Positions 3,183-5,372 of a DNA stretch of 12,534 nt are shown in pieces. The notes under the pieces were generated by a model that was not told the origin of the DNA, did not search any database, and saw only the letters and a program-made list of their open reading frames with translations. Both the position numbers and the translations under genes were made by a program. The stretch lies in assembly GCF_003334355.1 (NCBI RefSeq), contig NZ_QOWP01000053.1; one strand, 5' to 3'. The stretch comes from Escherichia coli (GTDB taxonomy: Bacteria > Pseudomonadota > Gammaproteobacteria > Enterobacterales > Enterobacteriaceae). Each line of letters opens with the position of its first letter. Position 1 is the first letter of the stretch.

Positions 3183-5372
3183 ATGTTTGTGGAGCATAAC
3201 CTGATAAAAAATATCAAGATATTCACACTAGCGTTTACGCTCACCGTGGTACTTATTCAGCTATCCCGTTTTATTTCGCCACTTGCCATTATCCATTCCA
3301 GTTATATCTTTCTGGCGTGGATGCCACTGTGCGTAATGCTGTCAATCTTGTTTATCTTTGGCTGGCGCGGTGTCGTTCCCGTTTTATGCGGGATGTTTTG
3401 CACCAATCTGTGGAACTTTCATCTCTCTTTTTTACAGACTGCGGTCATGCTCGGTAGCCAGACGTTTGTCGTGTTGTGTGCCTGCGCAATATTACGCTGG
3501 CAGCTGGGGACGCGTTGGCGTTATGGATTGACCAGCCGATATGTCTGGCAACGTCTGTTCTGGCTTGGTTTGGTGACGCCGATCGGCATCAAATGCAGCA
3601 TGTATCTTGTGGGGAGCTTCTTTGATTTCCCGCTAAAGATATCCACCTTTTTCGGCGATGCGGATGCCATTTTCACGGTCGTTGATTTGCTAAGCCTTTT
3701 CACCGCTGTGCTGATTTACAACATGCTTTTCTACTATCTCACTCGCATGATTGTAAGTCCCCACTTTGCGCAGATATTGTGGCGCAGGGATATCGCTCCG
3801 TCGTTGGGCAAAGAGAAACGCGCATTTACCTTAAGCTGGCTGGCAGCGTTAAGCGTGCTGCTACTTCTGTTGTGCACACCTTATGAAAACGACTTTATTG
3901 CCGGTTACCTGGTACCCGTTTTCTTCATCATCTTTACCCTCGGGGTCGGTAAGCTTCGCTATCCGTTTTTAAATCTCACCTGGGCTGTTTCAACGCTTTG
4001 CCTTCTGAATTACAACCAGAACTTTTTGCAAGGGGTGGAAACCGAATATTCGCTGGCATTTATTCTTGCGGTGCTGATTTCCTTTAGCGTTTGCCTGCTC
4101 TATATGGTGCGCATTTATCATCGCAGTGAATGGCTTAATCGCCGCTGGCATTTGCAGGCGCTGACAGATCCGTTAACGCTCCTACCCAACTTTCGTGCGT
4201 TGGAACAAGCGCCGGAGCAAGAGGCGGGCAAGAGTTTTTGCTGCCTGCGCATTGATAATCTTGAGTTTATGAGTCGTCATTACGGCTTAATGATGCGCGT
4301 TCACTGTATCCGCTCAATTTGCCGTACGCTGCTGCCGTTGATGCAGGAAAACGAAAAGTTGTATCAATTGCCGGGTAGTGAACTGCTGTTAGTGCTGAGC
4401 GGGCCGGAAACGGAAGGGCGACTCCAGCATATGGTTAACATCCTGAATAGTCGGCAAATTCACTGGAACAATACCGGGCTGGATATGGGCTATGGTGCTG
4501 CCTGGGGGCGTTTTGATGGAAATCAGGAAACCCTGCAACCCTTGTTGGGGCAGTTAAGCTGGCTGGCGGAGCAATCCTGCGCACATCATCATGTGCTGGC
4601 GCTGGATAGCAGAGAGGAGATGGTTTCCGGGCAGACCACTAAACAGGTGCTATTGCTGAATACCATTCGCACGGCGTTAGATCAGGGTGATTTGCTGCTC
4701 TACGCCCAGCCAATTCGCAACAAAGAGGGTGAAGGTTATGATGAGATCCTCGCGCGACTGAAATATGACGGCGGCATTATGACCCCGGATAAGTTTCTGC
4801 CCCTTATTGCTCAGTTTAACCTTAGCGCGCGTTTTGATTTGCAAGTGCTGGAATCCTTGTTGAAGTGGCTGGCAACACACCCTTGCGACAAAAAAGGACC
4901 GCGCTTTTCAGTCAATTTAATGCCGCTCACGCTGCTGCAAAAGAATATTGCCGGGCGGATTATTCGTCTGTTTAAGCGTTATCACATCTCCCCGCAGGCG
5001 GTCATTCTTGAGATCACCGAGGAGCAGGCGTTTTCTAACGCAGAAAGCAGCATGTACAACATCGAGCAGCTGCATAAGTTTGGTTTCCGGATTGCGATTG
5101 ATGACTTTGGCACCGGATATGCCAACTACGAACGGTTAAAGCGTTTGCAGGCTGATATCATCAAAATTGATGGCGTCTTTGTGAAAGATATTGTCACGAA
5201 CACGCTGGATGCGATGATTGTGAGATCAATTACCGATCTGGCGAAAGCGAAGTCATTGAGTGTGGTCGCGGAGTTTGTCGAGACGCAACAGCAGCAGGCG
5301 CTATTGCATAAGCTCGGGGTGCAATATCTGCAAGGGTATTTGATTGGTCGCCCGCAGCCATTAGCTGATTAA
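3183..5372 (+). CDS. pdeA: Membrane c-di-GMP phosphodiesterase: MASE1-like N-terminal domain, degenerate GGDEF-like region, EAL domain; 729 aa
   Basis: The ORF opens at 3066, but the MFVEHN start at 3183 gives the 729-aa length expected for YfeA/PdeA. The N-terminal ~300 aa are highly hydrophobic and multi-helical. The C-terminus carries the EAL-domain signatures EIL, ILEITEEQ, DDFGTGYANY and AEFVETQQQ. No GG(D/E)EF motif is visible in the middle domain. Confidence 0.88.
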   Translation: MFVEHNLIKNIKIFTLAFTLTVVLIQLSRFISPLAIIHSSYIFLAWMPLCVMLSILFIFGWRGVVPVLCGMFCTNLWNFHLSFLQTAVMLGSQTFVVLCACAILRWQLGTRWRYGLTSRYVWQRLFWLGLVTPIGIKCSMYLVGSFFDFPLKISTFFGDADAIFTVVDLLSLFTAVLIYNMLFYYLTRMIVSPHFAQILWRRDIAPSLGKEKRAFTLSWLAALSVLLLLLCTPYENDFIAGYLVPVFFIIFTLGVGKLRYPFLNLTWAVSTLCLLNYNQNFLQGVETEYSLAFILAVLISFSVCLLYMVRIYHRSEWLNRRWHLQALTDPLTLLPNFRALEQAPEQEAGKSFCCLRIDNLEFMSRHYGLMMRVHCIRSICRTLLPLMQENEKLYQLPGSELLLVLSGPETEGRLQHMVNILNSRQIHWNNTGLDMGYGAAWGRFDGNQETLQPLLGQLSWLAEQSCAHHHVLALDSREEMVSGQTTKQVLLLNTIRTALDQGDLLLYAQPIRNKEGEGYDEILARLKYDGGIMTPDKFLPLIAQFNLSARFDLQVLESLLKWLATHPCDKKGPRFSVNLMPLTLLQKNIAGRIIRLFKRYHISPQAVILEITEEQAFSNAESSMYNIEQLHKFGFRIAIDDFGTGYANYERLKRLQADIIKIDGVFVKDIVTNTLDAMIVRSITDLAKAKSLSVVAEFVETQQQQALLHKLGVQYLQGYLIGRPQPLAD

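Follow-up and report, generated by a model that had tools for sequence, protein, structure and literature searches.

The open reading frame at positions 3183-5372 of the 12,534-nucleotide stretch of Escherichia coli DNA analysed here (the window; contig NZ_QOWP01000053.1) encodes a membrane protein with a GGDEF-like and an EAL domain, and raises two questions: whether this protein synthesizes c-di-GMP, degrades it or does both, and where its translation begins, given that the frame is open far beyond the likely start. We conclude, with a probability of roughly 0.88, that the gene product is an inner-membrane, signal-gated c-di-GMP phosphodiesterase with a conserved but dead GGDEF domain, translated from the ATG at 3183.

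The gene is E. coli pdeA (yfeA, b2395), as proposed in a preliminary description made from the letters alone. Its frame runs on the plus strand from the ATG at 3183 to a TAA at 5370-5372, and its product is identical to K-12 PdeA (NP_416896.4) at 729 of 729 residues (100%), the start included. The locus also shares its neighbours with K-12, namely yfeC, tRNA-Ala and nupC; the differences are that MG1655 carries IS186C 25 b after the pdeA stop, where the window has none, and two tRNA-Ala genes upstream of pdeA, where the window has one. Since every complete E. coli genome (5426/5426) contains pdeA DNA and the protein is 100% identical to that of K-12, the features described in the following do not represent a chance pattern. 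Orthologues with 55-71% identity and a length of about 729 aa are found beyond the species, and the order yfeC, tRNA-Ala, pdeA, nupC is kept in four other species (Salmonella, Citrobacter, Enterobacter). Both full-length orthology and synteny place the gene in the PdeA/YfeA orthologue group of the Enterobacteriaceae, of which pdeA is a core gene. Because no NCBIfam equivalog model scores above its cut-off (the top model, DibA, scores 138 bits where 980 are required), PdeA has no curated family name beyond those of its domains.

The gene, its MASE1-degenerate GGDEF-EAL architecture, the PGSEL motif discussed below and the intact EAL residues have been published before, and the overall architecture given in the preliminary description agrees with the published 'MASE1-GGDEF(deg)-EAL' (PMC6510439; PMC3718329; PMC3484386 Table 1). 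The start at 3183 is likewise the one used in the curated K-12 annotation. The discovery value of the locus is therefore little, and its use is practical. The coordinates of its features are collected in Table 1.

Table 1. Features of the pdeA locus, with positions in the window.
Feature	Position	Strand	Basis
tRNA-Ala(GGC), directly upstream; bounds the pdeA regulatory region	2899..2974	+	ARAGORN, Rfam
Intrinsic terminator of the tRNA-Ala transcript	2982..3011	+	Terminator scan: 10-bp stem, then T-run
In-frame open stretch before the start (39 codons from GTG 3066), non-coding 5' region	3066..3182	+	Strain and genus comparison
Polymorphic C-run	3105..3109	+	Alignment; C5 in the window and K-12, one C fewer in the remaining strains compared
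Candidate sigma-70 promoter of pdeA, TTGCTT, 17-nt spacer, TATTAT (inferred)	3113..3141	+	Conservation
Shine-Dalgarno-like GAGAG	3168..3172	+	10 nt before ATG 3183
pdeA coding sequence	3183..5372	+	729 codons and TAA; protein identity to K-12 NP_416896.4
MASE1 integral-membrane sensor domain (residues 16-315)	3228..4127	+	Pfam PF05231, hydropathy, AlphaFold model
Cytoplasmic extension of the last membrane helix (residues 316-326, EWLNRRWHLQA)	4128..4160	+	AlphaFold model, conservation
Degenerate GGDEF-fold domain (residues about 326-470), predicted catalytically dead	4158..4592	+	Pfam, profile, AlphaFold
QENE (residues 388-391), position of the RxxD inhibitory site	4344..4355	+	Alignment
PGSEL (residues 397-401), position of the GG(D/E)EF active-site hairpin	4371..4385	+	Alignments, model
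EAL phosphodiesterase domain (residues 493-724), predicted active	4659..5354	+	Pfam PF00563, residue set, structure match
Bidirectional intrinsic terminator, common to convergent pdeA and nupC	5387..5412	.	Terminator scan, both strands

On the domain level, Pfam recovers a MASE1 domain, a weak and partial GGDEF domain and a full EAL domain. The N-terminal ~300 residues, which had been described as strongly hydrophobic and MASE1-like, indeed have a mean Kyte-Doolittle hydropathy of +0.94 (residues 1-315), compared with -0.18 for residues 316-729, and the MASE1 profile matches them almost from end to end (residues 16-315, model positions 2-298 of 299, E 3.9e-67). In an AlphaFold model of the protein, long helices form a bundle that extends from residue 7 to 326, so that a full-domain profile match and multiple membrane helices together mark this region as a member of the MASE1 family. 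In the same model, residues 290-326 form a single unbroken helix, whose cytoplasmic end (residues 316-326) runs into the segment ALTDPLT, where the GGDEF-like domain begins. At two positions in this connection, W322 and A326, all 32 PdeA orthologues compared have the same residue, and we infer that it transmits signals. The inter-domain arrangement in the full-length AlphaFold model is of low confidence (pTM 0.43).

The Pfam GGDEF match is confined to residues 326-423 (E 7.4e-4), and a profile of the middle domain, compared with the sequences in the PDB, retrieves GGDEF proteins exclusively, at marginal E-values of 0.003-0.009. Since sequence alone was insufficient to establish the fold, we used structure prediction. 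A domain-only AlphaFold model (pLDDT 84, pTM 0.80) has GGDEF domains as all of its top 50 PDB matches, with a TM-score of 0.76 (rmsd 2.7) against DgcZ (3tvk) and of 0.79 against RbdA (5xge), the maximum among solved cyclase domains. The middle domain thus has the fold of the GGDEF family (Pfam PF00990).

By contrast, its catalytic equipment is gone. Neither GG(D/E)EF, in keeping with the preliminary description, nor the relaxed G[GAS][DE]EF, nor RxxD occurs in the protein, as a regular-expression search shows. In place of the active-site motif stands PGSEL, which is aligned with the GGDEF of RbdA (5xgb) and PA0575 (5m3c) and with the GGEEF of DgcZ in three independent alignments, and which sits on the turn joining strands 392-395 and 400-405 in the AlphaFold model. 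Likewise, QENE is aligned with REGD of RbdA, at the RxxD allosteric inhibitory site, which is optional in the family. In the GTP/Mg-binding set DxD...K..ND..GH..GD, D358 is the sole residue kept; R356, E361, S364, R365, L369, R372 and V373 stand for D, K, N, D, H, G and D, respectively, and the replacements of K/N/D/H/D by E361/S364/R365/L369/V373 agree with a published table (PMC3484386). Alignment to cyclase domains accordingly reveals no canonical GGDEF active site, and the PGSEL motif, the replaced GTP/Mg-binding residues and the missing RxxD together support the earlier suggestion of an inactive cyclase. As the substitutions are conserved across genera, with P397, G398 and E400 invariant in 32 orthologues, the domain represents a conserved non-catalytic module: a complete, well-conserved GGDEF fold with its chemistry removed, and no remnant. 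This fully folded, strongly selected module is of relevance for studies of the signalling between MASE1 and EAL domains.

These findings bear directly on the product name 'bifunctional diguanylate cyclase/phosphodiesterase', which PGAP gives to the protein on most E. coli records. While the complete GGDEF fold is in line with such a dual activity, PGSEL in place of GGDEF, the loss of the GTP/Mg-binding residues other than D358 and the partial, marginal Pfam match speak against it. Furthermore, Salmonella Enteritidis lacking all GGDEF genes makes no PGA, and thus shows no c-di-GMP-dependent PGA synthesis, when yfeA is restored as its only GGDEF gene (PMC5464674), and the curated K-12 annotation names a phosphodiesterase only. 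We consider it extremely unlikely that PdeA is bifunctional; its residues strongly imply that a cytoplasmic fragment would form no c-di-GMP from GTP, and the automated name is unsupported by the pdeA sequence.

The Caulobacter crescentus protein of the same name (PdeA, CC3396; 3u2e, 3s83, 4hjf) is no orthologue of E. coli PdeA, but likewise has an active EAL domain behind a degenerate GGDEF domain, and the EAL domains of the two proteins superpose with a TM-score of about 0.78. It is a soluble PAS protein with a near-canonical GEDEF motif, and binding of GTP to its GGDEF-like domain has an activating effect. Could the degenerate domain of E. coli PdeA bind GTP and activate the EAL domain allosterically in the same manner? 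The shared domain order, the fold retained under strong purifying selection and the presence of D358 and E400 would be compatible with this idea. However, the residues that contact guanine and phosphate are replaced (by E361, S364, R365, L369 and V373), and a proline takes the place of the motif's first glycine. Judged by its sequence, PdeA would therefore not belong to the Caulobacter type, in which the degenerate GGDEF domain retains the GTP-binding residues, and we regard activation by GTP as improbable. The closest sequence and structure matches over the cytoplasmic part of PdeA, the modules of Pseudomonas aeruginosa RbdA (PA0861) and PA0575 (5xgb, 5m3c), share the tandem fold and the EAL catalytic set with PdeA, at an identity of only about 26%, but have PAS sensors instead of MASE1 and a canonical GGDEF, solved with bound GTP, instead of PGSEL.

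The retained fold and the strong conservation of the substituted residues, with little or no variation at P397, G398, E400, E361, S364 and R365 between Escherichia and Kosakonia, also bring to mind a candidate pocket. On this speculative and rather unlikely reading, the remodelled pocket of the dead domain could be a new site at which some small ligand or protein partner binds and gates the EAL domain, and PdeA would then be a two-input sensor, with MASE1 as one input and a repurposed cytoplasmic cyclase domain as the other.

The EAL domain, on the other hand, is intact. The Pfam match (residues 493-724, E 2.7e-59) covers model positions 2-236 of 236, and the signatures named in the preliminary description are all in place (EIL at 521, EITEE at 610, DDFGTGYANY at 640 and EFVE(TQQQ) at 697), joined by SVN at 576, KID at 661 and QGY at 717. 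All 11 catalytic and metal-binding residues (E521, R525, N578, E610, E613, D640, D641, K661, E697, E700 and Q717) are present, and all are invariant in the 32 orthologues, at identities of 55-71%. They are aligned with the same residues of MucR, RbdA and MorA, and a published table likewise lists a complete set (PMC3484386). In structural comparisons, the full-length model matches the solved, active EAL domains of MucR, RbdA, MorA and TBD1265 with TM-scores of 0.8-0.87 and rmsd values of 2.4-3 A, and it can be superposed on crystal structures of GGDEF-EAL tandems across 420-450 columns. Profile, fold and catalytic set thus all identify a complete EAL domain. A deviation is found in loop 6, where the invariant DFGTGY core is followed by AN (A647 and N648, both invariant) rather than by the usual SS of DFG(T/A)GYSS; the paralogue PdeF has AS at this place.

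A literature search of limited reach found no in vitro enzymatic assay of E. coli PdeA, and its residues and its Salmonella orthologue point to phosphodiesterase activity. This orthologue, Salmonella enterica YfeA (STM2410), has 729 aa, 69% identity, the same synteny, the PGSEL motif and the EAL residues, and is described as a phosphodiesterase in two contexts: the fall in aggregation and c-di-GMP that is induced by 5-oxoproline requires yfeA (PMC9509341), and the motility of a yhjH mutant suffers when yfeA is deleted (PMC4992967).

Alternatively, the EAL domain might be silent in E. coli, with PdeA acting as a c-di-GMP receptor or protein-interaction 'trigger' in the manner of LapD, FimX or CsrD. 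PdeA does resemble the GGDEF-EAL modules of LapD in structure, its protein levels are low and unstable (PMC5635695), and a paradoxical biofilm phenotype in strain CFT073 (PMC3484386) would fit such a role. Yet LapD, FimX and CsrD have lost catalytic residues, whereas in PdeA the full set is present and does not vary between genera, and the Salmonella phenotypes fit an active phosphodiesterase (PMC9509341; PMC4992967). We therefore do not file PdeA with the LapD/FimX type, which is defined by the loss of EAL catalytic or metal-binding residues, despite the structural likeness, and hold a purely regulatory EAL domain to be quite unlikely.

For the signal-gated phosphodiesterase that we favour, the following mode of action may be envisaged. 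A signal perceived by or through MASE1 would travel along the connecting helix to the dead GGDEF domain, which would serve as a structural relay or dimerisation adaptor and set the activity of the EAL domain. The latter would hydrolyse c-di-GMP to pGpG, and the lowered c-di-GMP level would favour motility over matrix production, while PdeA itself would make no c-di-GMP. A candidate signal is extracellular 5-oxoproline; this link has been made for Salmonella YfeA and would extend to E. coli PdeA by analogy. Furthermore, as PdeA is unstable in vivo, with proteolytic fragments reported (PMC5635695; PMC6510439), the control of its abundance is probably part of its regulation.

An observation that speaks against this reading comes from E. 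coli CFT073, where deletion of yfeA results in less biofilm, although the loss of a phosphodiesterase would most simply be expected to have the opposite effect. A heterologous phosphodiesterase and a cyclase both restored biofilm in this mutant, and the authors drew no conclusion from it (PMC3484386).

Two further E. coli proteins are built from related parts. PdeF (YfgF) is a paralogue with the same MASE1, degenerate GGDEF and EAL domains (711 residues, 30% identity, E 2e-99), in which the cyclase is described as dead and the EAL domain as catalytically active (PMC3718329); this likeness supports a live phosphodiesterase in PdeA as well. PdeF has SGNDL at the GGDEF position, where PdeA has PGSEL, is expressed anaerobically and modulates responses to aspartate, a phenotype that YfeA did not reproduce (PMC5635695; PMC3718329). 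DgcE (YegE) shares the N-terminal MASE1 domain and yields similar proteolytic fragments in immunoblots (PMC5635695; PMC6510439), but is the reverse of PdeA in combining an active GGDEF cyclase with a degenerate EAL domain (PMC3484386 Table 1).

Turning to the start codon, the open frame of 39 codons that had been pointed out upstream of 3183 is real in the window: the ORF listing gives a plus-strand frame of 768 aa with a GTG start (3066..5372), the 117 nt between 3066 and 3183 correspond to 39 codons, and only after 42 open codons is the frame closed by a TAG. A longer N-terminus could thus be read from GTG 3066 or from ATG 3123 or GTG 3144, both of which are in frame in 6/6 E. coli sequences examined. 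However, GTG 3066 is out of frame through a 1-nt indel in 5/5 other E. coli strains under comparison, and four of these also have an in-frame TGA 32 codons upstream of the pdeA start. In other genera, the frame is closed 18 (Salmonella), 16 (C. amalonaticus) and 6 codons (E. hormaechei) upstream, with no equivalent start. The frameshift polymorphism and these stops rule out GTG 3066. ATG 3123 and GTG 3144 have no counterpart in Salmonella, C. amalonaticus and Enterobacter, and in C. rodentium the 3113-3141 block is read in a different frame, so that what is conserved here is the DNA rather than an encoded protein. Finally, the N-terminal extensions that gene callers give to metagenome orthologues have no similarity to one another.

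ATG 3183, which had been named as the likely start, is the only conserved one. Downstream of it, F14, A17, S28 and R29 are conserved as protein, and position 2 of the MASE1 model is aligned with residue 16. The comparative sequence data thus contradict an upstream start, to which we assign next to no likelihood, and indicate that translation of pdeA begins at ATG 3183 and that the 39-codon extension is not coding. The long open frame is due to the C5 run and therefore an accident of the C5/C4 polymorphism in the K-12-type allele, which provides no basis for extending PdeA. In an even sample of genomes, 12 of the 29 full-length matches have 426 b and 17 have 425 or 424 b, which puts the shorter allele at about 60% of the sampled genomes.

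The 3113-3141 block is invariant in six E. coli strains and, in the intergenic alignment, is the best-conserved DNA from E. coli to Enterobacter. Its TTGCTT-N17-TATTAT elements fit the consensus at 8/12 positions only, and since a promoter scanner made no call between 2900 and 3300, we propose them as a candidate pdeA promoter on grounds of conservation; ATG 3123 would fall within its spacer. The polymorphic C-run is part of a small inverted repeat directly ahead of the presumed -35 element. Closer to the gene, the Shine-Dalgarno-like element is found at the same distance to the ATG as GTGAGAG in E. coli and Citrobacter and as GTGAGC in Salmonella. An Rfam scan of the entire window yields three tRNAs only and reveals neither a leader nor a riboswitch ahead of pdeA. 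Of the flanking terminators, that of the tRNA-Ala transcript is kept across genera, and the one common to pdeA and nupC is interrupted by IS186C in K-12 MG1655.

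The gene pdeA (yfeA, b2395) lies on a stretch of E. coli chromosome: a 2.5-kb query around it matches 5426 of 5426 complete E. coli genomes, with pdeA and nupC annotated under the match, and the gene order in the window (two tRNA-Val genes, gltX, yfeD, yfeC, tRNA-Ala, pdeA, nupC and onward) agrees with the K-12 map around b2395. The preliminary description had named its product PdeA/YfeA, and the 729-aa translation from 3183 is indeed the same as K-12 PdeA (NP_416896.4) at 729/729 positions. Both the gene and a description of it are already in the literature. Table 1 of Spurbeck et al. 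2012 (PMC3484386) lists yfeA with a MASE1 domain, with 'ESRLVQPGSEL' as the residues at the GGDEF positions and with 'EILR QRDD TE ENEEDKEQ' as a complete EAL set, the same residues that we derived independently, and Pfiffer et al. 2019 (PMC6510439) describe both PdeA and its E. coli paralogue PdeF (YfgF) as 'MASE1-GGDEF(deg)-EAL'. In the latter paper the former name of PdeA is printed as 'YfgA', apparently in error for YfeA. Some strains have a disrupted pdeA: in strain C21 an IS1 interrupts the gene, leaving one fragment annotated 'MASE1 domain-containing' and another 'EAL domain-containing', and 46 contigs carry a MASE1-only product of 440 aa that is named for Shigella flexneri. The gene is thus occasionally lost or pseudogenised.

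The proposed MASE1-like membrane sensor was borne out by domain annotation, with Pfam MASE1 at residues 16–315 (E 3.9e-67), and by a mean hydropathy of +0.94 over residues 1–315 vs −0.18 for the remainder. Pfam EAL covers residues 493–724 (E 2.7e-59), and between the two lies a weak, partial GGDEF match (326–423, E 7.4e-4, model positions 1–109 of 161). An NCBIfam search returned no equivalog at its cut-off. In the predicted full-length structure (pLDDT 75 overall, 70–91 in the middle-domain region), one unbroken helix, 290–326, runs from the last membrane segment into the GGDEF-like domain.

A motif search of the whole protein found no GG(D/E)EF, in line with the preliminary description, and no RxxD. 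Aligned pairwise by HMMER to P. aeruginosa RbdA (5xgb) and PA0575 (5m3c), whose tandem GGDEF-EAL modules have crystal structures, PdeA matches across both domains, with its YQLPGSELLLVL set against ARLGGDEFGILL and ARLGGDEFIILL of these proteins. A middle-domain profile, built from ten orthologues and PdeF and run against the PDB, matched GGDEF proteins only (DgcZ, RbdA and XCC4471), at marginal E-values of 0.003–0.009; these alignments, too, place PGSEL (residues 397–401) against GGEEF/GGDEF. Since such E-values made sequence weak evidence for the fold, structures were predicted. A domain-only model was confident (pLDDT 84, pTM 0.80), and all of its best 50 PDB matches were GGDEF domains, including DgcZ (TM 0.76, rmsd 2.7 Å), RbdA (TM 0.79), DgcB, WspR, PleD, DosC and FimX. 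In the full-length model, PGSEL sits on the turn between strands 392–395 and 400–405. Judging by these models, the GGDEF fold is complete.

The active site, by contrast with the fold, is degenerate, as the preliminary description had suspected: aligned to RbdA, the DxD...K..ND..GH..GD positions are now R356, D358, E361, S364, R365, L369, R372 and V373, and QENE (388–391) replaces the RxxD I-site. Among 32 orthologues from Citrobacter, Salmonella, Enterobacter, Lelliottia, Leclercia, Pseudescherichia and Kosakonia, P397, G398, E400, E361 and S364 are invariant (32/32) and R365 is kept in 30/32. Purifying selection acts on the middle domain as a folded module, and its residues indicate that it is dead as a cyclase. 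Caulobacter PdeA is GTP-activated; a similar activation of E. coli PdeA is very improbable, as its GTP-contacting residues are replaced. RefSeq/PGAP names for the product differ, ranging over 'bifunctional diguanylate cyclase/phosphodiesterase', 'sensor domain-containing phosphodiesterase', 'EAL domain-containing protein' and 'MASE1 domain-containing protein'. The first of these, which makes PdeA both cyclase and phosphodiesterase, is not supported by the sequence and is contradicted by the replaced GGDEF-domain residues and by Salmonella carrying yfeA as its sole GGDEF gene, which makes no PGA (PMC5464674).

The EAL domain, described beforehand as intact, carries all the signatures quoted for it (EIL 521, EITEE 610, DDFGTGYANY 640, EFVE 697) and in addition SVN 576, KID 661 and QGY 717. 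E521, R525, N578, E610, E613, D640, D641, K661, E697, E700 and Q717 are invariant in 32/32 orthologues, and the catalytic residues line up with the same ones in MucR, RbdA and MorA, whose EAL domains are active and of known structure; the predicted model superposes on these structures with TM 0.8–0.87 and rmsd 2.4–3 Å. Only loop 6 deviates, with DFGTGYAN in place of the usual DFG(T/A)GYSS; PdeF has DFGTGYAS there. That PdeA is instead an inactive receptor of the LapD or FimX kind is most unlikely given these intact catalytic residues. A literature search of partial coverage found no in vitro assay of E. coli PdeA.

Taken as a degenerate-GGDEF phosphodiesterase, PdeA may work as follows: a membrane or periplasmic signal would alter the MASE1 helices, this change would reach the EAL domain by way of the connecting helix and the GGDEF-like adaptor, and the EAL domain would hydrolyse c-di-GMP. 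The Salmonella orthologue, 69% identical to E. coli PdeA, is needed for the 5-oxoproline-induced drop in aggregation and c-di-GMP, with its MASE1 domain proposed as the sensor (PMC9509341), and yfeA deletion in a yhjH background weakens Salmonella motility (PMC4992967). In E. coli CFT073, yfeA deletion led to less biofilm, with ambiguous complementation (PMC3484386). Sarenko et al. 2017 (PMC5635695) observed massive proteolytic fragmentation of PdeA and suggest that PdeF takes over from it under anaerobiosis.

Coordinates of the pdeA reading frame and of the terminator that follows it
Feature	Position	Strand	Remarks
ORF	3066..5372	+	earliest possible start = GTG
pdeA start / stop	ATG 3183; TAA 5370-5372	+	ATG 39 codons 3' of GTG 3066
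bidirectional terminator hairpin CCGGGGAATTATCCCCGG, flanked by A- and T-runs	5380-5412	both	intact, between convergent pdeA and nupC

In the window, the frame is open upstream of 3183 as reported, which raised the possibility of a longer N-terminus. We aligned the tRNA-to-pdeA spacer with that of five other E. coli strains, which were sampled evenly from the ranking and include O157:H7 and two more divergent ones (~95% identity). A C-run at 3105–3109, C5 in the window and K-12, is one base shorter in the five; this puts GTG 3066 out of the pdeA frame in 5/5, on which ground the codon was rejected as a start, and in 4/5 a TGA interrupts the frame 32 codons before the ATG. In an even sample of 30 genomes, the span was 426 b in 12 of 29 full-length matches and 425 or 424 b in 17, so that shorter alleles are the majority there. 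The extension is an allele-specific accident. As ATG 3123 and GTG 3144 are in frame in 6/6 E. coli sequences, the orthologous loci of four other species were compared: the upstream frame is interrupted by a stop at a distance of 18 codons in Salmonella, 16 codons in C. amalonaticus and 6 codons in E. hormaechei, and none of these three loci has an equivalent start, which led us to reject both codons. Escherichia, Salmonella and Citrobacter all keep the ATG aligned to 3183; in Enterobacter it is found two codons further downstream. Protein conservation begins by residue 14 (F14, A17, S28 and R29 invariant), residue 16 aligns to MASE1 model position 2, and the curated K-12 CDS opens at the equivalent ATG. 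A longer N-terminus is contradicted by the comparative data within E. coli and in other genera, which settle the question for 3183.

Within the intergenic DNA, conservation is highest in TTGCTT-N17-TATTAT at 3113–3141. Since C. rodentium gene calls read this block in another frame, it is conserved as DNA, not protein. We infer a candidate pdeA promoter, with ATG 3123 falling within its putative spacer; it stays a candidate because TTGCTT/TATTAT match the consensus at only 8/12 positions and a promoter scanner made no call on the block. A Shine-Dalgarno-like GAGAG lies 10 nt 5' of ATG 3183, and Citrobacter has GTGAGAG at the same distance from its start. The putative −35 is directly preceded by a small inverted repeat (AACAGG-N7-CCTGTT, 3095–3113), which the scanner marked as terminator-like on the minus strand and which holds the polymorphic C-run (C5 vs C4) in its loop.

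The flanks differ from K-12 in two respects. Between yfeC and pdeA, the window has one tRNA-Ala(GGC) gene (2899–2974), whereas K-12 has two (alaW, alaX), as do Salmonella, Citrobacter and Enterobacter; 30/30 evenly sampled complete E. coli genomes read 'tRNA-Ala (x2)' with a span 115 b longer. The window is therefore short of one tandem unit, through either a real recombinational deletion or a collapsed repeat in the source assembly. In K-12 MG1655, IS186C is inserted inside the pdeA-nupC hairpin (the sequence departs after ...GGGGAATTATCCC); the window lacks it and is thus not MG1655 itself, despite the identical PdeA. Spacer polymorphisms within E. coli cluster at about 3045–3095, with 3110–3260 invariant in 6/6 sequences. 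Over 2975–3400, roughly 1000 of the 5428 records show 90–95% identity, which suggests a distinct lineage-specific allele of the tRNA-to-pdeA spacer.
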